This document shows positions 11,284-64,000 of a stretch of 64,000 nucleotides of DNA, in pieces. Below the pieces are notes generated by a model. The model ran no database searches. It worked only from the letters and a program-made list of their open reading frames with translations, and was not told the origin of the DNA. The stretch is taken from positions 1,568,001-1,632,000 of the forward strand of contig OZ255726.1 of NCBI GenBank assembly GCA_965277405.1. Reading direction: 5' to 3'. Made by a program: the position numbers and the translations under genes. Within the stretch, counting starts at the first letter, position 1. Every line of letters starts with the position of its first letter. Origin of the DNA: Gammaproteobacteria bacterium (GTDB lineage Bacteria > Pseudomonadota > Gammaproteobacteria > G965277405).

Positions 11284-12498
11284 ATGAACAACATCAACAA
11301 AATTGTCCTCGCTTATTCTGGCGGGCTGGATACTTCAGTCATCGCCAAGTGGCTGATGGACACGTATCAAGCTGAAATCATCACTTTTACGGCGAATATT
11401 GGTCAAGGAGAAGAGGTTGAGCAGGCGCGAGCAAAAGCGCAGCAGCTTGGCATTGATAATATCTATATTGAAGACCTGCAAGAGGAATTTGTTCGTGACT
11501 TTGTCTACCCGATGTTGCGCGCCAATGCGCTTTACGAAGGTGAGTATTTGCTCGGCACTGCGATTGCACGACCATTGATTGCCAAGCGACTAATTGCGAT
11601 TGCTGCTGCACATAACGCTGAGGCAATTGCCCATGGTGCCACTGGCAAAGGCAATGACCAAGTACGCTTTGAATTGAATGCGTATGCATTGAATCCAAAC
11701 ATTCAAGTCGTCGCACCTTGGCGTGAGTGGGATTTAAATTCCCGCAGCTCGCTATTAGCGTATTGCCAACAACATGGGATTGCTGTCGAGCAACAACGTG
11801 ACGATAAACCTCCATATTCGACCGATGCAAACCTGCTGCATACTTCGTTTGAAGGTGGTCAACTTGAAGACCCAAACACAACCGCTCCTGAAAACATGTG
11901 GCAACGCACCGTATCTATTGAAAACGCCCCTAATCAAAGTGAGGATATCGCCATCACTTTTGACCAAGGCGATGCGGTTCGATTGCACGATACCCCATTC
12001 ACCCCGGCGCAATTACTCACTGAGTTAAACCTGATAGCAGGCAAACATGGTGTAGGTCGTGCAGATATTGTTGAAAACAGATACGTAGGGATGAAGTCGC
12101 GCGGCTGCTATGAAACCCCAGGCGGGACAGTATTGTTAAAAGCACACCGGGCGATTGAGTCAATAACGCTTGACAGAGAACAAGCCCATTTGAAAGATTC
12201 ATTGATGCCACGCTACGCTGAAATGATTTATAACGGCTATTGGTTTGCCCCAGAACGCCACAGCCTGCAGCAATTGATCGATCATACCCAGCACAACGTT
12301 AATGGTGTGGTGCGGCTACGCATTTATAAAGGCAACGTGATTGTGCTTGGACGCAGCTCGCCAAACAGCTTGTATGACGCCAATATTGCCAGTTTTGAAG
12401 CAGACCAGGGCGCGTATAACCAACAAGACGCCGCAGGGTTTATTCGCTTACACGCGCTGCGCCTCAAACTGCAACATAACAGTCGCGGTGGTCAATAG
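11284..12498 (+). CDS. argG: Argininosuccinate synthase
   Basis: [23 protein letters not shown] and [18 protein letters not shown] motifs. Confidence 0.98.
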
Positions 12499-12525
12499 AG
12501 GTGGAAATTACGCTGGCTACGCTAA

Positions 12526-12806
12526 GGAAGTTCTGATTAAGTCCATGACGGGCGAGACGGAGAAAAAACGCTGATGATAACTAGACTCAGTGCGCAGATA
12601 ATACTGGTGGTATTATCAAGTGCTGCAACGACGTTAGCGCAGCGTTTTTTCCCGTCCTTCTGTTGAATATACTTTGGGTTTGCTGCCATTGCTGCGCTTG
12701 CTGTGTTGCATCCCTTTGCGTATATGCTACGGCATGCGCTTAGCGCCTTGCAATCATCAGCAATGGCAGGCAAACTCGCTCCATCAGCGACTTAATCAGA
12801 GGTTCC
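12526..12806 (-). mobile_element. Complete MITE copy, reverse orientation
   Basis: Terminal inverted repeats GGAAGTTCTGATTAAGTC / GACTTAATCAGAGGTTCC; CTAA direct repeat at 12522-12525 and 12807-12810. Confidence 0.92.
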
Positions 12807-20782: not shown

Positions 20783-23509
20783 TTATTGGCAAACATCACA
20801 TATTCCACTATCTTGATCATTTTTTTTCAGTGGTTTGTTGATGGTTTTGCTTGTAGACATTTCTGCCTGAGTTGCGCCGAGTGTGCGCAAGTAATACGTG
20901 CACTTCACCCCATTGCGCCATGCTGATTTATATAATTGATCCAGATCTCGACCTGAGGAGGTATCAAGATATAAATTGAGTGATTGTGATTGATCAATCC
21001 ATTTTTGCCGTCGCGCTGCTGCGCGCACCAACCATTGTTGATCTATTTCAAATGCGGTTTTAAACCGGCTACGAATTGCTGCTGGGATTTTTTCAATACT
21101 GCTAATGCTGCCTTGTTGCTCTTTCAGTAACTCTTGCATATCGGCGTCCCAAATACCTGATTTTTTAAGTTCGCCGATCAATTCTGGGTTAATTATAACG
21201 AATTCGCCTGAGAGCGTGCTAATGGTATGCAAATTGCTATACATCGGCTCGATTGAGCGGCTGGCACCAGTAATATTAGCTATTGTCGCCGTTGGCGCAA
21301 TTGCCATTACATTTGAGTTACGCATCCCTTGCTCCGCAACCTTTGCACGAATACCACTCCAATCTAGGCTTGATCCATAATTAAAAACTGAATATTTTGC
21401 GCCGCGTTGCTCCTCGAGCATTTTTAAAGAATCTATTGGAAAAATATCTTTGCTCCATAACGACCCAGCATAGCTTGGATATGCGCCACGTTCGCCAGCA
21501 AGGTCACTGGAAGCCTCGATCGCATACAAGCTAATGCTTTCCATTGAGAAATCGGCAAATTCAACGGCTGCATCTGAATCGTAGGTATACCCCAATATAT
21601 TTAGCGCGTCCTGAAACCCCATCAGCCCCAGACCAACTGGTCGATGCCGCATATTGGAGGTGCGCGCCTTGTCAACAGCATAAAAGTTAATATCAATCAC
21701 GTTATCTAACATCCGCACCGCTGTGCGTACTGTGCTGCGCAGACTCTGTTGATCAATGGCAATATTGCCGCTGGCATCAGTGTGCATGTGTCTGGCAATA
21801 TTTATAGAGCCAAGATTGCAGACAGCAATTTCGTCTTTATTAGTATTTAAGGTAATTTCTGTACACAAATTTGATGAGTGCACCACCCCTACATGCTGCT
21901 GCGGTGAGCGAATATTGCACGGGTCTTTAAACGTCAGCCATGGATGCCCTGTTTCAAACAACATTGTCAGCATTTTTCGCCATAAATAGACAGCTTGTAC
22001 CTCTTTACCAGCAATAATTTTTTGTTGCGCCTGACGCTCGTAATGCTGATAGCGTTGGCGAAATTCACTACCATAGACTTCGTGTAAATCTGGAGTTTCG
22101 TTTGGTGAGAACAAGGTCCATACACCATTTTCATGCACCCGTTGCATAAACAAATCTGGCACCCACAACGCCGTGTCAATATCTGGTGTTCTGCGGCGGT
22201 CGTCGCCAGTGTTTTTTCGCAACTCTAGAAATTCTTCGACGTCGCCGTGCCACACTTCTAAATACGCACAGACTGCCCCTTTGCGCTTGCCGCCTTGGTT
22301 GACAGCGCCCGCTGTTGCATCGAGAATATTTAAGAAGGGTACGACACCTTGGGAATGACCGTTCGTTCCTTTTATCCGTGAGTTGAGCGCGCGCACTGGG
22401 GTCCAATCGTTGCCTAGACCACCTGCCCATTTTGATAACATTGCGTTATCGTGAATGCTGTTAAAAATCCCGTCTAAATCATCAGGAATAGTTGTTAAAT
22501 AGCATGAGGACAGTTGGGGTCGCCGCGTACCAGCATTAAATAAAGTAGGCGTTGATGCCATATAACCAAACTGTGACAACAAATGATAAAACTCGATGGC
22601 CCGCGCTGTAGGTTGATCTTCATTAATTGCTAACCCCATTGCTACGCGCATATAAAATGTTTGCGGCAATTCAAATCGATTGCCATTTTTATGCAAAAAG
22701 TAGCGGTCTTCAAGTGTTTGTAACCCCACATATTGAAACTGTAAATCACGGCTGGGGACAATTTCCTTCCCCAGCGCTGCAAGGTCAAAGCGTGTTAGCA
22801 GCACCGGGTTTAGGAGCTCATGCTCAACGCCTATTTTTAGACCTGCTACAAATATCTCTGGGTATAATTGGTTTAAATGTGTGTGGTCAGCATGTTGGTG
22901 TACGCCAGTAAACAAACAGACACGGACAACCAAATAATCGAGCAGTACGCGAGCACTTGCATACGTTGCTTCTGGTACGCGTCCTACCAATGTGTGAATT
23001 TCAAGAATAATTTCTCGGGTAATGTCTTCATATGAAATATCTGGACACAAATTCTCCAACACCCGTTCAAAAATAATGCGAACATTTAATCCTGAGAAAG
23101 GCTCACAAACGGCGGCAATATAATCAAATAGCCACTTTTTATCTAATTGCGCAACAGTATTTCCTGCTGAATCAATGTACGGATACTCTTGCTTGTTATT
23201 TTTACTTCTGTTAAGAATTAATTGACGGGCAAATTTCTTATAATCCCGCGCAATAGATACCGCATATATAGCATCGGTCAGATGCTCTGGAAAGATATCA
23301 TTGCCAGGTCGCTCTTGCTGCTCTTGGTAAACTACTGCAGCTATAAAATCATCAAGATGGTCAATATGCTCAACATCATGCCTGCTGGTAATGGTAAAAA
23401 TGCTTTGTTTTAACTGCTGGTAATCAAATGGCTGCTGGTTGCCTTCGCTGTGTCGTATCGATTTGTTGGCGACGCTAATGATCTTCTGTTGTGTTGTGTC
23501 CACGTACAT
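20783..23509 (-). CDS. nrdA: Ribonucleotide reductase class Ia alpha subunit
   Basis: STPTLFNAG, QLSSCYL, SSNLCTEI, VCNLGS, AIAPTATI, TYYLR and C-terminal CDVCQ; degenerate ATP-cone region. Confidence 0.96.
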   Translation of the reverse strand: MYVDTTQQKIISVANKSIRHSEGNQQPFDYQQLKQSIFTITSRHDVEHIDHLDDFIAAVVYQEQQERPGNDIFPEHLTDAIYAVSIARDYKKFARQLILNRSKNNKQEYPYIDSAGNTVAQLDKKWLFDYIAAVCEPFSGLNVRIIFERVLENLCPDISYEDITREIILEIHTLVGRVPEATYASARVLLDYLVVRVCLFTGVHQHADHTHLNQLYPEIFVAGLKIGVEHELLNPVLLTRFDLAALGKEIVPSRDLQFQYVGLQTLEDRYFLHKNGNRFELPQTFYMRVAMGLAINEDQPTARAIEFYHLLSQFGYMASTPTLFNAGTRRPQLSSCYLTTIPDDLDGIFNSIHDNAMLSKWAGGLGNDWTPVRALNSRIKGTNGHSQGVVPFLNILDATAGAVNQGGKRKGAVCAYLEVWHGDVEEFLELRKNTGDDRRRTPDIDTALWVPDLFMQRVHENGVWTLFSPNETPDLHEVYGSEFRQRYQHYERQAQQKIIAGKEVQAVYLWRKMLTMLFETGHPWLTFKDPCNIRSPQQHVGVVHSSNLCTEITLNTNKDEIAVCNLGSINIARHMHTDASGNIAIDQQSLRSTVRTAVRMLDNVIDINFYAVDKARTSNMRHRPVGLGLMGFQDALNILGYTYDSDAAVEFADFSMESISLYAIEASSDLAGERGAYPSYAGSLWSKDIFPIDSLKMLEEQRGAKYSVFNYGSSLDWSGIRAKVAEQGMRNSNVMAIAPTATIANITGASRSIEPMYSNLHTISTLSGEFVIINPELIGELKKSGIWDADMQELLKEQQGSISSIEKIPAAIRSRFKTAFEIDQQWLVRAAARRQKWIDQSQSLNLYLDTSSGRDLDQLYKSAWRNGVKCTYYLRTLGATQAEMSTSKTINKPLKKNDQDSGICDVCQ

Positions 23510-23820
23510 GTTGCTGAGTATTATGTTGATTGGTTAAATACAGTCATATTATGCTGCTATTTCCTGCCAGCTACGGCAGCAAAACCCACGCAAAGCGTAT
23601 GTAGTGCAACTGATTTTTTAATGGAGGACTGTGTTGTTACTGTTATCTAATTATTGGGAGGCAGGCTCTATTATCGCGTGAACCTACCCGTGCTGTGATG
23701 TAACATATACATGTATAGTTGTATATTATTGGTGTTGAAGTGCCGATGTCACTCAACTGCAGCACAATGTTGTGCTGCAATGAATTATGTATTACCACTT
23801 CTTATTACTACAACTTACTA

Positions 23821-23877
23821 CCACAACATATAGTGTGTTTTTTTGTAATTTTGTTCTAAAAGCACTATATGTTGTTT
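23821..23877. promoter_or_regulatory. Tandem NrdR boxes upstream of nrdAB
   Basis: CCACAACATATAGTGT (23821-23836) and GCACTATATGTTGTTT (23862-23877) match consensus acaCwAtATaTwGtgt at 14/16 and 13/16, 41 bp apart. Confidence 0.8.
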
Positions 23878-24362
23878 TTATATTGTCAGAGCTTTGTAAT
23901 GATTGCAATACGATATTACCTGGCACAACATGCCCTTACCAGCAAAGCCATTGTTTACCGCAACTTTCATCTAAAAAAAAATTCTCTGATTTCTTGCCGA
24001 TATCATTGACATATATTTTTTGTGAAAATATAGGGATACCGTAATAATCGTCCCGAATTTGTAATACAAATGCACGAGAAATAATGATGAAATATCAAGG
24101 ATATATAATTTTAAGCTAGCCTCATTGCCTGGGCAGGCCTTGGTAGGACGCCAGCACAACTGCCATTACTCATGCTCACAACATGCACGGTCAGTGCTGC
24201 AGCATGCGCTTGCTTACATATTGTATTTACTAAATGCTGATGATCGTTGTCAATACCGAGCTTCCCTAATGATGTGTCACCAACACCAACAATATTGGAC
24301 TGGATGCCGCATCGTTGTTACTCCGTCTCACCCATCTTGGACTGCAGCAGAGTTACCATAAT

Positions 24363-25049
24363 TTAGCAGGCAGGTATCACGGCCTGTGTGGCGATTTTAG
24401 GGAGTGGCAAATCGAGGCGCTCCCAGGTGGAGCAGTATTTTTGTAGTGCTGCGTCTGGATTGACCACAACCGGATGTGCAACACGCTGCAGCAACGGCAG
24501 ATCGTTGATTGAGTCTGAATAAAACCAAGTGTTTGCATACGATAAATCGGGCTTGGCGGCGAACCATTGTTCAACGACGACGCATTTGCCAACATTGAAT
24601 GTTGCGGTGCCGAGAATTTTCCCAGTAAAACGACCTGCCACTTGTGCTAGCATCGTTCCAAATGCCGCGTCCACATCAAACAGCTGTGCTGCGGCTTTGA
24701 CCAAATACATATTTGATGCTGAAACGATAATAATATCATCGCCTGCGGCGCGATGTTGCGCAATCCGCTCAACAAGTTCAGGGTATATCCAATATTGGAC
24801 AACGGTTTCCATATATTCTTGCAACAATACTGTGCGTTGTGCACCGACAGCATTCAAGACATCTGCAACGAACACAATATAGTCGGTCATCTGCAATTCG
24901 CCGGTATCATACAAGCGCATGAAGCCACGGTTACGTTGCTCATACCACTGTGCATCTACCACGTTTTTGTGGATCAAAAATCGCCCCCAACCGTAATCGC
25001 TGTCCGCAGCAATCAGCGTTTTATCTAAATCAAAGACAGCTAATTGCAT
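24363..25049 (-). CDS. HAD-IB family hydrolase (possible histidinol-phosphatase)
   Basis: FDLDKTLI, IVSAS and FYSDSINDLPLL motifs. Confidence 0.88.
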   Translation of the reverse strand: MQLAVFDLDKTLIAADSDYGWGRFLIHKNVVDAQWYEQRNRGFMRLYDTGELQMTDYIVFVADVLNAVGAQRTVLLQEYMETVVQYWIYPELVERIAQHRAAGDDIIIVSASNMYLVKAAAQLFDVDAAFGTMLAQVAGRFTGKILGTATFNVGKCVVVEQWFAAKPDLSYANTWFYSDSINDLPLLQRVAHPVVVNPDAALQKYCSTWERLDLPLPKIATQAVIPAC

Positions 25050-25062
25050 GGCTATGAACTAA

Positions 25063-25346
25063 GGAAGCTCTGATTAACTTGCTGATGGAGCGAGGTTGCC
25101 TGCAATTGCTGATGATTGCAAGGCGCATTCCGCAGGTGCATGCCGTAGCATATACGCCAAGGGATGCAACACAGCAAGTACCGCTTGTAGGCAAACCATC
25201 ATATATTCAATAGAAGGACGGGAAAAAACGCTGCGATCCGTTGTTGCAGAACTTGATAATACCACCAGTATTATCTGCGCACTGCGTCTAGTTATCATCA
25301 GCGTTTTTTCTCCGTCTCGCCCATCATGGACTTAATCAGAGCTTCC
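25063..25346 (+). mobile_element. Complete MITE copy overlapping the argF 3' end
   Basis: TIRs GGAAGCTCTGATTAA / TTAATCAGAGCTTCC; CTAA duplication at 25059-25062 and 25347-25350. Confidence 0.95.
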
Positions 25347-26248
25347 CTAAGTGAAATCATCAACGCTTTTTGGCTATGCAACCGATTTTCTGTGCCATGC
25401 CAAACCCCAGAGCATGCGTCATGCAATACATATTCATCGACTTCTTCACCGCGGTTTGCGGGTAAACAATGCAAAAACAATACATTTGTACTTGCTTGTG
25501 CGATCAATGCTCTATTGACTTGATACGGGGAAAACTTCATATTTCTTGCTGCTGACCCCGTATCACCCATCGAAGCCCAGACATCGGTAACGATTAAATC
25601 TGCACCGCGCACTGCTACCACAGGGTCTGCTTCTTTGGTATAATTCCTGCCATATTGCGCGACTATGGCTTGGTCAGGTTCATAGCCATCAGGACCGGCG
25701 TGAACCAGTTCAAATTTGAGCAAATATGAGGCTTCAATATATGAGTTAAGAATATTATTGCCGTCGCCCATATAGGCGACTTTCCTTCCTGCAATATCGC
25801 CGCGCAATTCAGAAAATGTTTGCATATCCGCAATGATTTCACACGGGTGATGCGTGTCTGTTAAGCCGTTGATAACTGGCACTTTGGCTACAGCTGCAAA
25901 CCTCTCTACCTCAGCTTGCTCAAAGGTGCGAATCATCACCATATCGACCATTGATGTCACCGCCATTGCAGTGTCTTCAATCGATTCGTTGCGGCTCAAC
26001 TGCAATGCATCTCTTTGTAAAAACATCGCGTGACCACCAAGATGGTAAAACCCAGCCTCAAATGACACCCGCGTGCGTGTGGAAGGTTTTGCAAAAATCA
26101 TTGCCAAGGTTTTGCCCTGAAATACCTTGGGGTTTTTTCCTTGGTAATGATCCCGCTTAATTTGCTTTGCGGCATCTATCAGTGCCACAAATGACTGGGC
26201 TGATAGGTCAGCTATTCTCAAAAAATGTTTCATAAATATAGTTGTCAC
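25298..26248 (-). CDS. argF: Ornithine carbamoyltransferase with MITE-derived C-terminal tail
   Basis: KPSTRTRVSF, HPCE, TDVWASMG, FLHCLPA and ENRLH motifs; the last 16 codons lie in the element. Confidence 0.95.
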   Translation of the reverse strand: MTTIFMKHFLRIADLSAQSFVALIDAAKQIKRDHYQGKNPKVFQGKTLAMIFAKPSTRTRVSFEAGFYHLGGHAMFLQRDALQLSRNESIEDTAMAVTSMVDMVMIRTFEQAEVERFAAVAKVPVINGLTDTHHPCEIIADMQTFSELRGDIAGRKVAYMGDGNNILNSYIEASYLLKFELVHAGPDGYEPDQAIVAQYGRNYTKEADPVVAVRGADLIVTDVWASMGDTGSAARNMKFSPYQVNRALIAQASTNVLFLHCLPANRGEEVDEYVLHDACSGVWHGTENRLHSQKALMISLREALIKSMMGETEKKR

Positions 26249-27849
26249 TCAACTGGTTGGAATGCTTGCAATGTGAAGGCACGCTCGTTTTTTATTTGTT
26301 CAATTTGTTTTTTGACAACTTCAGATTGCTTATTCGCAATCCCGTTATTATCGATGCCAGTAATCCGGCTACAATTATCCGTGCAGACAGAGCGTAATGG
26401 ATAACATTGCGGGTTCGATTGCTGCGCCAGGGCATATTTTAATTGTAATTCCCATAGGCCTGCAACGGTGTTTCCTGCAACAATTTTCCCTTGCACTTTA
26501 AATAACAACGCCTCTAGCACTTGGGCGTTGGTGTTCAGCGTATGGCTTGCTATCAACTCCTGACTCCTTTCATACACGCCTTCATACAGACCACGCTCTT
26601 GGTGTATTAGCGCACTGGCGCGATTAAACAACATTGTGGTAAACGGCGAATCCCATAATACCCACATTGCAATAGCTGCTTTGGTAGTCATTGCCGTATA
26701 TTGCGGCACACCTTCGCCGAGCTCATTAATTGTATTCCACGCTTTTCCATTAGCATATATTGTGTCATACACAAAATACGGCGGTCCTGGTAATTCGTAT
26801 TCGCTCTTAGCTGTGAGTAAGCTGGTACGCTCAAAGCGTTGGCGTTGCGCTGTATATAAACGTTGGGCTTGTTGATACGAAAAAGTGTCTGTGTACAGAG
26901 TTTCCTTGCTGGTGGTGTCGCGTGGGTTATCCCAAGCATATTCAATGCCGTCGAGCAAATAACTATCGGCCATCAAAAAACTCTTCTCGCTGAGGCTATT
27001 GACATCACGGCTATCAATGTAGACATTTTGTTTCTCAACTTGTACTTGTATTACCGGCTCAATTGTTGCTGCAGCGTCTGCATTAAACCCCCACATCCGA
27101 AACCCTTTCGCAGCATATTCTTCATAGCCCAGCCGCCCCTGTTGCAATACATGCAGTACATTATCACGATCTATGGAACCAGCGTATAATACACCTTGAT
27201 CTATAACCCCACAATAATTCCAGCGCAAGGTGATTCGATCTATCAATCCAGCAAGTTCTGGGTTTTTCTCACGCAATATACGCAACCAAGTAAGCAAGCG
27301 GCCAATCTCAATCGGCGAATAACCAAATTCGCCTGCTTTACCTTTATAATTGATTGGCTTCCCTGAATTAACTGAGTAAAACCTATTGGGAATTTTATCT
27401 TGAAACAACTTCTGTTGGTGTAAAGTAAGCAGCAAGGCGTTCACGCGCCGGCGATACTCAATATTGTCAATAAGCTGCAGTTGTACTGCCGACACCAACG
27501 CCGCAATTGTTGAGCCCACATGCCACATGCTGGCAACAGGTTCATGGTGTATTGCATTGACTAGTCCTGTTTTTGGATTGGTGTTGGCAATAAAATACTG
27601 CCAAGCTACGCCTGCAAGCTGCTGTTCTTCAATTGATAATGGACCGTGACGAGGGTGTATTTGTAGCACATTTTCTTGTAGCACCCGCCCTGAAACATGC
27701 TTAAATTGCTTGAGGGTTGCCGCTCCATACACGCTACCTTTTTCTGTAATATAGCTATATCCACTGGTCCATATGTCATTTGACGCCACCCACAACACTA
27801 CTACAATCAGCAGTCCTTTTCTGGAGAGAACACGTGAAAATAACTGCAT
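26245..27849 (-). CDS. DUF3131-like exported protein (putative glycoside hydrolase fold)
   Basis: AWQYFIANTNPKTGLVN, SMWHVGS, GRLGYEEYAAKGF and YFVYDT motifs; N-terminal TM. Confidence 0.7.
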   Translation of the reverse strand: MQLFSRVLSRKGLLIVVVLWVASNDIWTSGYSYITEKGSVYGAATLKQFKHVSGRVLQENVLQIHPRHGPLSIEEQQLAGVAWQYFIANTNPKTGLVNAIHHEPVASMWHVGSTIAALVSAVQLQLIDNIEYRRRVNALLLTLHQQKLFQDKIPNRFYSVNSGKPINYKGKAGEFGYSPIEIGRLLTWLRILREKNPELAGLIDRITLRWNYCGVIDQGVLYAGSIDRDNVLHVLQQGRLGYEEYAAKGFRMWGFNADAAATIEPVIQVQVEKQNVYIDSRDVNSLSEKSFLMADSYLLDGIEYAWDNPRDTTSKETLYTDTFSYQQAQRLYTAQRQRFERTSLLTAKSEYELPGPPYFVYDTIYANGKAWNTINELGEGVPQYTAMTTKAAIAMWVLWDSPFTTMLFNRASALIHQERGLYEGVYERSQELIASHTLNTNAQVLEALLFKVQGKIVAGNTVAGLWELQLKYALAQQSNPQCYPLRSVCTDNCSRITGIDNNGIANKQSEVVKKQIEQIKNERAFTLQAFQPVE

Positions 27850-48607: not shown

Positions 48608-48887
48608 GGAACCTCTGATTAAGTCGCTGATGGAGCGAGTTTGATGGCAATTGCTGATGATTGCAAGGCGCAATCCGCTAAGCGCATGCTGTAGCATATA
48701 CGCCAAGGGATGCAACACAGCAATTACCATCAAACCCAAAGTATATTCAACAGAAGGACGGGAAAAAACGCTGCGCTAACGTCGTTGCAGCACTTAATAA
48801 TACCACCAGTATTATCTGCGCACTGCGTCTAGTTATCATCAGCGTTTTTTCTCCGTCTCGCCCATCATGGACTTAATCAGAGGTTCC
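48608..48887 (+). mobile_element. Complete MITE copy overlapping the bolA 3' end
   Basis: TIRs GGAACCTCTGATTAAGTC / GACTTAATCAGAGGTTCC; TTAG duplication at 48604-48607 and 48888-48891. Confidence 0.95.
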
Positions 48888-49195
48888 TTAGGGTGACATT
48901 GTGGTGATGGTGCGGGGTTTGCCGTTTGCCATTGACTCGCTGTATACGTATGCAGCGCCAGTGCATGGATAGGGTTTTGCATAAGATGCCGCACTGTTGC
49001 ATACACAATTTGATGGGATTGTACTCGAGACTTATTCGTGAATGCTTCACTAACAATAACTACACGAAAATGCGTTTCGCTATTAGCAGGAACGCTGTGG
49101 TTATTGCTTTCGTTGACGATGTCAAGGTGCAATGGCTGTAGCTTGGTTAACAACGACTGTTGTAAGGATGCGGCGATGCCAACGTGTTTGGTCAT
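48839..49195 (-). CDS. bolA: BolA family protein with MITE-derived C-terminal tail
   Basis: NESNNHSVP, SETHFRVVIVSEAF, IHALALHTYT and SPQC motifs; the tail is encoded by the element. Confidence 0.92.
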   Translation of the reverse strand: MTKHVGIAASLQQSLLTKLQPLHLDIVNESNNHSVPANSETHFRVVIVSEAFTNKSRVQSHQIVYATVRHLMQNPIHALALHTYTASQWQTANPAPSPQCHPKEPLIKSMMGETEKKR

Positions 49196-53580: not shown

Positions 53581-54096
53581 TTAGTAATCCTTGCTGGCAA
53601 CGCCACCGCGCAAAATAATAATTTGCCGCAGCAGGCAGGATACAGACTGAATAAGCAACAGAACACAAAATGCTAAAATAAATGATTTAAGCAACCACAC
53701 CGCAGGAATACCGCCTACCGAAATTGCGCCTTCCATAATCAAGACTGAATTCAGCACCGATGGCCAGGTCCAGTATAACAATGCCGACATTGATGGGATC
53801 GCTAATACGGCAAAGCCAAACGTATCAATTCGCGCCTTGGTCATCTTGCGTGCAGTCGCATAGAAAATATCGACGCGCACATGGCGGTTGACCAACAACG
53901 TATAGCCAGCACCTAGCATAAAAAGCCCAGCATGCAGATAAAGAACGCTTTCATTGAGCGCGATTGAACTGAACCCGAAAACATAGCGCAGCAACACCAC
54001 AGCAAACTGCACAAGAACCATTAGCAGAGCAAACCAACGCACAGTCATTCCTGTCCACAGGTTGACTTGATCGAGCATATCAGCAATACGTTGCAT
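53581..54096 (-). CDS. dctQ: TRAP transporter small permease
   Basis: VVLLRYVF and GYTLLVNRHVRVDIFY motifs; four TMs; start approximate. Confidence 0.9.
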   Translation of the reverse strand: MQRIADMLDQVNLWTGMTVRWFALLMVLVQFAVVLLRYVFGFSSIALNESVLYLHAGLFMLGAGYTLLVNRHVRVDIFYATARKMTKARIDTFGFAVLAIPSMSALLYWTWPSVLNSVLIMEGAISVGGIPAVWLLKSFILAFCVLLLIQSVSCLLRQIIILRGGVASKDY

Positions 54097-54159
54097 GCAA
54101 TTTCTTAGCAAATGCCACAACCAGCGCAACGGATAGCCCCCGCACTGGTTTAATTTGCA

Positions 54160-55257
54160 TCAATAGCCAAGCACTTTGGCGCGTGCATTCATCTGACCAT
54201 TATCAGCATAGGTCATGTAACCCCCAATCAAATCGCGATAGGCAACGAAGCTTGCCACGATTTTGCGCGTCAGCGCATCATCGCTTGCTCGTAATTCGTC
54301 AATCACTGCGGCTGCGGCCTTACCCATGGCGTCAATGACATCAGCTGGCAGCATCCGGACTTTAACGCCTTGATCCGCAACTAGTTGCTGCAATGCGATG
54401 GCATGCTTCGTCTCGTATTCGGTCCAGACCTCATTATACAAGCTGTCACAGGCAAACTTGACCACTACTTGCAAATCTTGAGGAAGATCGGCAAACGTCT
54501 TGGCATTGATCGCACATTCTTCGGCCGAGGACGGCTCACCTACACCAGGCCAATAATAGTTTTTGGCAACCTGATAGAAACCAAGCGCACTATCTGACCA
54601 TGGACCAATAAACTCGCCAGCATCAAGCGCTCCTGACTGCAGCGCCTGAAACATGTCACGCCCGCCCATCGCCTGCACCGCCATGCCAAGTTTGGAACAC
54701 ATTTCTGATGCCAGCCCAGTGGTGCGGAATTTTAGTCCTTTCAAATCATCGACTGAATTGATTTCTTTGTGGAACCATCCAGCCCATTGCGGGCCAGAAT
54801 TGCCGCATAGGAATGGCTTTAAGCCAAATTTCGCATACATTTCATCGTAGAGTTGCTGACCGCCTCCATGGGCAAGCCAGCCTACCTGTTCATCGGCACG
54901 CAGACCAAATGGCTGCGAACCGAACAACAAAATACCCTTGGATTTCGACCCCCAATACGCTGGAATTGCATGGTACAATTCAACCGTGCCTTCGGAAACA
55001 GCATCAAAAACGCCATTGCCAGGCACTAATTCGCCAGCAGCATGGAGCTTGACTTCTATCCGTCCTCCAGAAAGAGTCGTGATACGATCAGCCAGTTTTT
55101 GTGCTGCCACCCCAGGACCTGGTAAGTTTTTAGGCCATGCGGTGACCATGTTCCACTGGCGTTTATCCTTTGCAAGCGCAGGCGTTGCCAATGTTGCGGC
55201 TGCTGCGGCTGCTCCCATGCTGGTCACGCCAGCTGTCAAAAATTCACGTCTTTTCAT
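54160..55257 (-). CDS. dctP: TRAP transporter substrate-binding protein (Tat signal)
   Basis: KRREFL twin-arginine signal, DLKGLKFR, ALQSGALDAGE and YYWPG motifs. Confidence 0.92.
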   Translation of the reverse strand: MKRREFLTAGVTSMGAAAAAATLATPALAKDKRQWNMVTAWPKNLPGPGVAAQKLADRITTLSGGRIEVKLHAAGELVPGNGVFDAVSEGTVELYHAIPAYWGSKSKGILLFGSQPFGLRADEQVGWLAHGGGQQLYDEMYAKFGLKPFLCGNSGPQWAGWFHKEINSVDDLKGLKFRTTGLASEMCSKLGMAVQAMGGRDMFQALQSGALDAGEFIGPWSDSALGFYQVAKNYYWPGVGEPSSAEECAINAKTFADLPQDLQVVVKFACDSLYNEVWTEYETKHAIALQQLVADQGVKVRMLPADVIDAMGKAAAAVIDELRASDDALTRKIVASFVAYRDLIGGYMTYADNGQMNARAKVLGY

Positions 55258-62837: not shown

Positions 62838-63074
62838 GGAAACGCTGATTAACTCGCTGCTGGGGCGAGTTGGCTGCAATTGCTGATGATTGCCAGGCGC
62901 AAACCCAAAGTATATTCAACACAACGACGGGAAAAAGACTGAGCTAACTTCGTTGCAGCACTTGGCAGCACCCACAAGTCCCCACCAGTGTTAGCTGCGC
63001 ACGCACCTTGCTATCCATCAGCCATCTAGCGTTGTTGCTGCGTCTCGCCCGTCATGGACTTAATCAGAGCTTCC
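62838..63074 (+). mobile_element. Diverged, internally deleted MITE copy
   Basis: TIRs GGAAACGCTGATTAA / TTAATCAGAGCTTCC; TTAG duplication at 62834-62837 and 63075-63078. Confidence 0.9.
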
Positions 63075-63999
63075 TTAGGTCGATAACCCTGCCAAGATGG
63101 AAGATGCGGTTGTCGTTGTGTTGGTGGCAGAATACTCGTAGTCCTGCAAATGTTTTGCCATTGTGGTGTTCTTCGCCTGTGCTAATGGGGGTGATGACGC
63201 GGGTGCTTTTGCTATCGTTGGGTTTGAGGTAGGTCATTGTCAGGTCGCGTTTATCGGCAATAGCTTGTTGCAGGATTGCTGTTTTTTCTGAGTTTGGAAA
63301 ACTCGCTGCAATGCGCTGATATGTTAAGTTGGTCATAAAGTTGCAGATAGTAGGATCAGTGCGAATATGTTGGCTCTTAATAGGCACTTCAAGGCGAATA
63401 CCAGCCAGCGATGTGCAGCGACTCATCGCGACATATAATTGCCCGCATGCGAAGGTGCCTCTGCCAATATCAATGCATATTTTTTCGAATGTTTTGCCTT
63501 GGCTTTTGTGAATCGTGACTGCCCATGCCAGCCGCATTGGCAATTGAGTAAAGCTGCCAATTGGTTCTGCAATCATTTCGTCATCAATCACGCTAAATGT
63601 ATAGACCTCCCAGGTGTGGGCGGTAACGGTGACAGTTTTGTTATTGTCGCGCAGTTGCACGCGTAAGCTTTTCTCTGCGTCTTTGTCAACATTTCGTGAT
63701 TTAATAATCCCAATCGAGCCGTTATACCAGCGGTCTTCTTGGTCGTTATTTAACATCATTATTTGCGAGCCTATTTTGTAATGTAGCTCGGTTGCTGTGG
63801 GGTAGTATTCTCGTCCAAAATCCCCCTTAATCGTGGCAATGTTGCTGTGTTGTTTGCCTTTAAGCCGTTGGAGATGGGCGACATTGATTTCGTCTGCTTT
63901 TTGGTTGGTGGGGGTCAGTGTTATGGCAATTTCTTTCGTGTTAACGGTGCTTTGCTGGTCGTGTTGTTGATTGAGTACATGCAAATCTGCAGCGGTTGT
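63064..63999 (-). CDS. PIF1/RecD-like SF1 helicase C-terminal part with WYL-like tail, 5'-truncated by the window edge
   Basis: QLPMRLAWAVTIHKSQGKTF and GQLYVAMSR motifs, then MTYLK...RVITP...FCHQHNDNRIFHLGRV. Confidence 0.88.
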   Translation of the reverse strand, partial: TTAADLHVLNQQHDQQSTVNTKEIAITLTPTNQKADEINVAHLQRLKGKQHSNIATIKGDFGREYYPTATELHYKIGSQIMMLNNDQEDRWYNGSIGIIKSRNVDKDAEKSLRVQLRDNNKTVTVTAHTWEVYTFSVIDDEMIAEPIGSFTQLPMRLAWAVTIHKSQGKTFEKICIDIGRGTFACGQLYVAMSRCTSLAGIRLEVPIKSQHIRTDPTICNFMTNLTYQRIAASFPNSEKTAILQQAIADKRDLTMTYLKPNDSKSTRVITPISTGEEHHNGKTFAGLRVFCHQHNDNRIFHLGRVIDLRKL

Positions 64000-64000
64000 T

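Follow-up and report, generated by a model that had tools for sequence, protein, structure and literature searches.

On the minus strand of the window, by which we mean the whole stretch of 64,000 nucleotides that was analysed, the ornithine carbamoyltransferase gene argF is followed by a gene for a HAD-IB family hydrolase, and a MITE lies between the two with one of its ends inside the argF reading frame. The genome to which the window belongs is a single contig of 2,174,577 bp with 44.8% G+C. The locus contains, in the direction in which argF is read:

25298–26248, minus strand: argF, ornithine carbamoyltransferase, 316 aa from a GTG start (the database form has 311 aa and starts MKHFL)
25840–25851: HPCE codons of argF
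25347–25350: target-site duplication CTAA, right copy; TTAG on the argF strand, divided between codons L300 and R301
25301–25348, minus strand: tail codons REALIKSMMGETEKKR, 16 codons, of which the first two bases are duplicated target and the remainder is element
25063–25346: MITE, argF copy, non-autonomous IS5-type, 284 bp, 93.3% identical to the family consensus (rank 48 of 142)
25332–25346, minus strand: right terminal inverted repeat, the exact reverse complement of GGAAGCTCTGATTAA with 0 mismatches; argF enters the element here
25292–25300, minus strand: triple in-frame stop TGA TGA TAA within the element, the first being the current argF stop; present in the family consensus too
25074–25298, minus strand: 74-codon ORF inside the element, its ATG overlapping the argF stop (TGATG) and its end lying in the far inverted repeat; not conserved across the family
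25063–25077, plus strand: left terminal inverted repeat GGAAGCTCTGATTAA, 0 mismatches, with TGA and TAA in two of three frames
25059–25062: target-site duplication CTAA, left copy
25052–25054, minus strand: former argF stop TAG, 2 nt upstream of the next gene's ATG
24363–25049, minus strand: HAD-IB family hydrolase gene downstream of argF (TIGR01490, 144.7 bits, cut-off 98.3); histidinol-phosphatase-like, below the cut-off of that model

Inspection of the sequence shows that the 284-bp element has inverted ends, 15 nt long and perfect, and is flanked by a duplicated CTAA target; in an inverted-repeat search its arms reach 29 nt at 83% complementarity. The 15-mer GGAAGCTCTGATTAA recurs throughout the window: with at most 3 mismatches allowed there are 23 matches against 1.49 expected, a count reached in 0 of 100 shuffles. 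A decayed MITE end is found at 24258–24361, directly after the stop of the hydrolase gene (52 nt at 79% identity to the right end of the argF copy, plus 12 nt exact), so that the two-gene argF–hydrolase unit has an element both within it and behind it. Upstream of argF there is a 534-aa ORF (26245–27849) with no NCBIfam match, the stop of which overlaps the GTG of the long argF form.

The empty site was reconstructed by removing 25063–25346 and one CTAA, and was then translated by script. The restored frame ends ...HGTENRLHSQKALMISLSS and a stop (...KALMISLSS). The translation of the filled site is ...KALMISLREALIKSMMGETEKKR and then three stops, i.e. ...KALMISL joined to REALIKSMMGETEKKR; a further translation of the same site gives ...MISLREALIKSMMGETEKKR, then TGA TGA TAA. 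An independent pass over all copies of the element returned a 302-aa ORF for the argF empty site, in which the target lies 2.3 codons short of the end. The preliminary description had proposed that the C-terminus of ArgF was rewritten by the element, the empty site ending in MISLSS and a stop; the two reconstructions agree on this and the proposal is exact. Its view that the enzyme carries a tail encoded by a mobile element is likewise borne out, as the duplicated target, together with 49 nt at the end of the element, encodes the last 16 residues of the annotated ArgF and the stop codon. The resulting 316-aa ORF ends ...HSQKALMISLREALIKSMMGETEKKR.

A blastn search of the 2,174,577-bp genome with the argF copy gave 296 HSPs and 142 full-length copies; when merged, the matches form 236 intervals covering 59,322 bp, or ~2.7% of the genome. 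A perfect 4-bp duplication flanks 60 of the 142 copies, and in 47 of these 60 it is TTAG (25 copies) or CTAA (22 copies). With 93.3% identity to the consensus against a family median of 90%, the argF copy is neither among the youngest nor among the oldest. The longest ORFs per frame within the MITE have a median of 43–58 codons and are unconserved. An exact 37-nt sequence from the end of the MITE was found in 0 genomes of other species and in 0 JGI metagenome contigs.

A likely source of the transposase is resident in the same genome. Inverted-repeat pairs 1200–1249 bp apart occur 35 times, corresponding to about 35 copies of a 1.2-kb IS5-family parent element, and PF01609 (DDE_Tnp_1) has 70 matches, the best of them in the 319-aa open frames of the 1.2-kb units. 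The parent transposase scores 330.3 bits on the IS5-family model NF033581 of NCBIfam (cut-off 140). The 15-nt ends of the MITE match those of a 1228-bp IS (genome position 54009–55236) exactly or with a single nucleotide changed. The two elements have only these terminal 15–19 nt in common, and the argF MITE is therefore not a simple internal deletion of the resident IS. IS5 itself has ends of the GGAAG type and a target of the CTAA/TTAG type. The argF MITE is like IS5 (IS5 group) and its MITEs in all of these respects, i.e. the NF033581 transposase family, ends beginning GGAAG and 4-bp CTAA/TTAG duplications. Judged by its sequence, the element is a MITE that uses an IS5-family transposase, and the common ends and target are what point to the parent enzyme as the one that mobilises it. 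Many copies across the genome are flanked by ...TTCC CTAA GGAA..., which places elements end to end or at the junction of an earlier copy; a MITE end together with its duplication may recreate the preferred target.

The body of ArgF can be compared with a large number of relatives. The protein scores 382.8 bits on NF001986 (cut-off 306) and 335.5 bits on TIGR00658 (cut-off 280.85), with the profile aligned to residues 5–301 of 316, and the alignment with the best solved homologue, 7x99, stops at residue 297 of the 311-aa form. Among 5.8 billion proteins searched, the best homologue apart from the window's own protein is 58% identical, and all 40 of the 40 relatives found belong to other families. 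At E ≤ 1e-50 there are 26 matches from the relatives, and every one terminates at query residues 298–306 (one of the 26 is from an unpublished genome, G038). In the homologue alignment a conserved ...NRLHxQKALxEFLL is followed by unconserved residues. Beyond this final conserved stretch, 114 of the 120 listed proteins have 1–6 residues, five have 8–12, and this ArgF alone has 15, the longest of all. The tail is accordingly absent from every orthologue in the three comparisons made (the 26 relatives' matches, the homologue alignment and the 120 listed proteins). Since the ends of orthologues vary freely past the conserved stretch, what the element replaced were two residues in a freely variable zone.

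We consider it very probable that a MITE inserted just before the argF stop and that the tail is a tolerated by-product of this event in dispensable last codons. The 1.2-kb IS5-family element resident in the genome would have mobilised a non-autonomous IS5-family MITE, which inserted at TTAG/CTAA, 2.3 codons before the stop, and duplicated its target. Translation from codon L300 would now enter the terminal repeat in the sole open frame of the three, adding the 16 new residues REALIKSMMGETEKKR where Ser-Ser once stood and terminating at TGA-TGA-TAA inside the element. The junction lies beyond the final conserved residues of the enzyme's last helix, and the new tail would be expected to extend the C-terminal helix into solvent. 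Because orthologues have 1–12 unconserved residues at this point, the tail is probably tolerated, and a functionless appendage is the most likely description of it. From the open reading frame alone we infer that the tail is translated; the tailed ArgF is presumably made and active, with the tail neutral. As a side effect of the insertion, argF and the hydrolase gene, once arranged as stop-CC-ATG, would have been parted by strongly folding RNA, and any translational coupling between them lost.

This side effect could also be the principal one. It is possible, although rather unlikely, that the insertion acts mainly at the level of the RNA or the operon and that the protein tail is incidental, a reading which is compatible with that of a tolerated tail. 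A hairpin holding the argF stop would then be cut by a double-strand RNase or would impede ribosomes, yielding less ArgF, and the hydrolase gene would be uncoupled from argF translation. The arrangement of the genes is consistent with this, in that the empty site has argF TAG-CC-ATG hydrolase and there are now 248 nt from the argF stop to the hydrolase ATG. The 20 nt that precede the hydrolase ATG show no Shine-Dalgarno-like sequence, whether the site is filled or empty, and this, together with the 248-nt gap, makes lost translational coupling a plausible cost. The element RNA on the argF strand is also predicted to be very stable (-130.7 kcal/mol, z -7.86, with 0 of 100 shuffles as stable), and the tail codons and stop are inside the stem. 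A hairpin of this predicted stability could reduce expression, in which case the insertion would not be neutral, and by analogy the same idea has been put forward in a passage on a MITE-extended gene of Coxiella (PMC5896051). Several observations speak against a major effect of this kind: the element contains no terminator-like site, the region has about as many promoter-like sites as chance would give (5 found against 4.4 expected), and the hydrolase ORF is intact. Moreover, no hydrolase hit was obtained in the argF loci of 19 relatives (1.5-kb flanks each), and the pairing is therefore not a conserved operon. No Rfam family matched in 23500–26500 at E ≤ 1. A ribosome relay via TGATG into the 74-codon ORF, which ends 24 nt before the hydrolase ATG, was considered as well and rejected, as it is not a family feature: TGATG is kept in 119 of 142 copies, with an ORF that reaches the far repeat in only 15 of these 119 and a usual length of 30 codons.

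The enzyme itself shows some unusual substitutions. In ornithine carbamoyltransferases HPxQ and STRTR are carbamoyl-phosphate motifs, and DxxxSMG and HCLP are ornithine-side motifs. The preliminary description had the motifs of ArgF as otherwise intact, which stands for STRTR, for DxxxSMG (as DVWASMG) and for HCLP, with NRLH and its arginine also kept, but fails at two positions. HPxQ is HPCE in this protein, where each of the other 117 listed homologues with a match to the motif has HPCQ (2 of 120 were not matched by the regular expression), and HCLPAHR, present in 119 of 119 others, is HCLPANR; each change is unique among the 120 nearest listed proteins. At columns that are invariant in 19 aligned homologues, ArgF has 17 private deviations against at most 5 in any other row, a count that is inflated by the other rows having been picked as the best hits of ArgF. 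The HPCE and HCLPANR changes may reflect relaxed selection or altered chemistry. If argF were under relaxed selection, as it could be, a 'tolerated' tail would mean little.

The stronger form of this argument is that argF is decaying in a genome laden with copies of the IS and the MITE, the tail being a further lesion in a protein which is no longer an ornithine carbamoyltransferase. We think this improbable. The substitutions and private deviations favour it, but the ORF is full length and above two curated cut-offs, the motifs listed above are retained, and an AlphaFold2 model of ArgF is confident (mean pLDDT 90.4, pTM 0.90), with the last helix, residues 277–310, continuing through the tail at a pLDDT of ~74 over 301–310. 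The pathway context points in the same direction: the genome has argG, argH, argC and argB, each in an open frame that scores above its cut-off, and no second ornithine carbamoyltransferase was found in the genome, the sole other carbamoyltransferase-like match being 26% identical. This context supports ArgF working as an ornithine carbamoyltransferase. The argininosuccinate synthase gene argG (469.3 bits) lies in the same window and, within the interval 11299–12806, is followed by a MITE copy (12526–12806) that starts ~50 nt past the end of the argG match.

The preference for a tolerated insertion is in keeping with where copies of the family survive. We compared 60 reconstructed empty sites with the 12,087 CTAA/TTAG sites outside copies, with ORFs of at least 100 codons serving as a proxy for genes and some spurious ORFs thus in both sets:

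intergenic: 30 of 60 empty sites, 16.4% of available sites
last 10 codons of a long ORF: 12 of 60 empty sites, 3.9% of available sites
on the stop codon: 8 of 60 empty sites, 3.1% of available sites
codons 11–30 from the end: 1 of 60 empty sites, 6.2% of available sites
first 30 codons: 4 of 60 empty sites, 10.3% of available sites
deep inside an ORF: 5 of 60 empty sites, 60.2% of available sites

Enrichment over the last ten codons and on the stop codon equals or exceeds that of intergenic DNA, and the argF site is well within the tolerated zone. A more adventurous reading of this distribution is that the ends of the MITE are 'safe-landing' cassettes, with which the family settles last codons and stops as freely as it does intergenic DNA, and that the host could use the common helix as a shared handle. 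Safe landing would follow from the stops in two frames of each 15-nt repeat, the triple stop after 15 codons at one end and a YTAR target that contains TAA or TAG, and an amphipathic 15-residue helix would be added as a by-product to proteins as unrelated as ArgF, GspD, rhodanese and BolA. Taken as a whole, this proposal is very doubtful.

Such an ending is not peculiar to ArgF, which is one of 31 ORFs in the genome that have at least 100 codons outside a MITE yet end inside one, and the reading frames are used as chance predicts. Pfam domains were found in 19 of the 30 others, giving 20 Pfam-supported genes with ArgF included; the 19 are a GspD secretin, rhodanese, BolA, PGI, Sir2, RodZ, an RCC1-repeat protein, DctQ, ZnuA, a thioesterase, an MFS transporter, a PIF1-type helicase, MsrA, alanine racemase, an M20 peptidase, an HflX-like GTPase, a ferredoxin, CoaE and a periplasmic binding protein. 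With TGA and TAA in two frames of the inverted repeat, most tails are 2–4 residues long (...GKL or ...GSSD and a stop), and the third frame leads to 15–16 residues. The element is entered by the same end as in argF in 14 of the 20 Pfam-supported genes and by the other end in 6. Entrants by the argF end take the open frame in 4 of 14 cases (29%, against 33% expected) and stop within 2–4 codons in the other 10. The open frame of the other end, ~50–55 codons long, is used by 0 of 6 Pfam-supported entrants where 2 would be expected; selection against such a long tail is suggested by this figure, which is not significant (P of 0 = 0.088).

Three genes with such ends deserve mention. A BolA-family gene in the window (48839–49195, minus strand) ends in a MITE copy at 48608–48887 with nearly the same tail, ...KEPLIKSMMGETEKKR and a stop, and here too the reconstructed target precedes the old stop by 2.3 codons. 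A PIF1-like helicase that has a WYL domain (62838–64000, the gene exceeding the window end) ends 2.7 codons inside a MITE copy at 62838–63074, with the tail ...RKL. The type II secretion secretin GspD (genome C1:289005–291233, locus L058) has lost ~21 original C-terminal codons and gained the same 15-residue tail, the deepest cut of the Pfam-supported genes among the tail cases listed.

The same 15–16-residue tail ends seven long ORFs, four of them Pfam-supported (ArgF, the GspD secretin, rhodanese and BolA). This raises the prospect of a selected functional tag, concerned with stability, localisation or interaction, that has been co-opted on these four proteins. The tail is predicted to be helical, and in the argF copy it matches the family consensus exactly even though the copy differs elsewhere (93.3% overall). 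The frequencies described above run counter to such a tag, the open frame being taken at the chance rate, and the four carriers are unrelated in function and location. There is no excess of synonymous change: across 131 of the 142 copies we counted 30 synonymous and 205 non-synonymous changes in the tail frame, i.e. 12.8% synonymous against 20% for random change, and the control frames gave 19.7% and 11.4%. The commonest differences from the consensus in the stretch, in the first base of the second codon (41 copies) and the third base of the fifth codon (33 copies), change the amino acid and match the A/P and K/N variants of the tail. The stretch is conserved at the DNA level, not at the peptide level. 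A functional tail peptide was dropped on the frame frequencies and the absent synonymous excess, and we regard it as highly improbable. The chance-like reading frames and the lack of coding constraint across copies instead make the tail a tolerated by-product of insertion.

Both junctions are present in short-read contigs without a mismatch. Logan contigs were taken from three runs (X1, X2 and X3), all of one study that may be the source of the assembly itself. Contigs from X1 and X2 cover 24700–25097, with 35 nt within the element, and 25322–25800, with 25 nt within it, an overlap at the right junction that is under the 31-nt bridging rule; they contain 0 differing letters, and the flanks have equal depth (263.7 and 267.2 in X1). 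An X3 contig covers 24700–25110. No contig in X1–X3 joins 25062 to 25347, the joint of an empty site, contigs being able to drop rare variants. That an assembly artefact misplaced a repeat copy at the 3′ end of argF is scarcely credible: the element is a 142-copy repeat and the short-read contigs do break inside it, but contigs of 3.3–4.3 kb from two runs extend on either side from unique flank into the element, none links the two flanks directly, and the exact 4-bp duplication with a cleanly restored ORF and stop is the expected trace of a true insertion.

Small mobile elements that alter the ends of genes are known from several bacteria. The Correia elements of Neisseria are abundant small inverted-repeat elements which, when inserted close to the ends of genes, change transcripts and in some cases the ends of ORFs, and their RNA hairpins are RNase III substrates. 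They differ from the argF MITE in having another sequence, a TA target and no known IS5-type parent. The closest parallel is provided by QMITE1 and QMITE2 of Coxiella burnetii. In the passages of Wachter et al. (2018; PMC5896051) that describe them, these elements overlap the 3′ ends of functional genes, on which they confer up to 16 residues and a stop, with a tail common to different proteins (e.g. AQTHRRQLKGAR on PntAA and on a transporter); they are stable hairpins, and avoid the 5′ ends of known genes. The argF MITE shares the overlap with 3′ ends, the same tail on unrelated proteins and the stable hairpin. On those descriptions the QMITEs differ in their ends and direct repeats (7–9 bp for QMITE2, from a figure legend in the review PMC10969869), in the absence of an IS5-type YTAR target and in being from an unrelated organism and of unrelated sequence, whereas the argF MITE has an identified, active-looking parent IS and frame statistics that can be tested.

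In the same review, in-frame MITE fusions are called 'not unusual', with the Rickettsia RPEs as the extreme case (PMC10969869). As described there, the RPE, like the argF MITE, is a short palindromic mobile element found in frame in unrelated metabolic genes, and it adds a conserved peptide apparently compatible with the fold of the host protein. RPEs, however, lie inside ORFs and are read through, whereas the argF MITE ends the ORF after 15–16 codons, and in that account they have no identified IS5-type parent. As in the QMITE and RPE fusions, the argF ORF passes in frame from host sequence into the element, where it stops. Among the IS5-group MITEs, with which the argF element is to be placed, transposition has been demonstrated for MITEPsy1 of Pseudomonas syringae, as reported in PMC3189936. 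A literature search for a MITE in an ornithine carbamoyltransferase gene gave nothing on topic, as judged from titles and the starts of abstracts.

The argF finding is real, clean and well supported, yet it is one case among ~20 in this genome and reveals no new mechanism. Its value lies in showing how a mobile element has altered the end of a core enzyme in a way that can be reconstructed base for base. Across the genome, the ~20 such genes usefully show where in a gene an insertion is tolerated, the last ~10 codons acting like intergenic DNA. For annotators, the corollary is that C-terminal extensions in IS-rich genomes may be encoded by the element rather than by the host gene.
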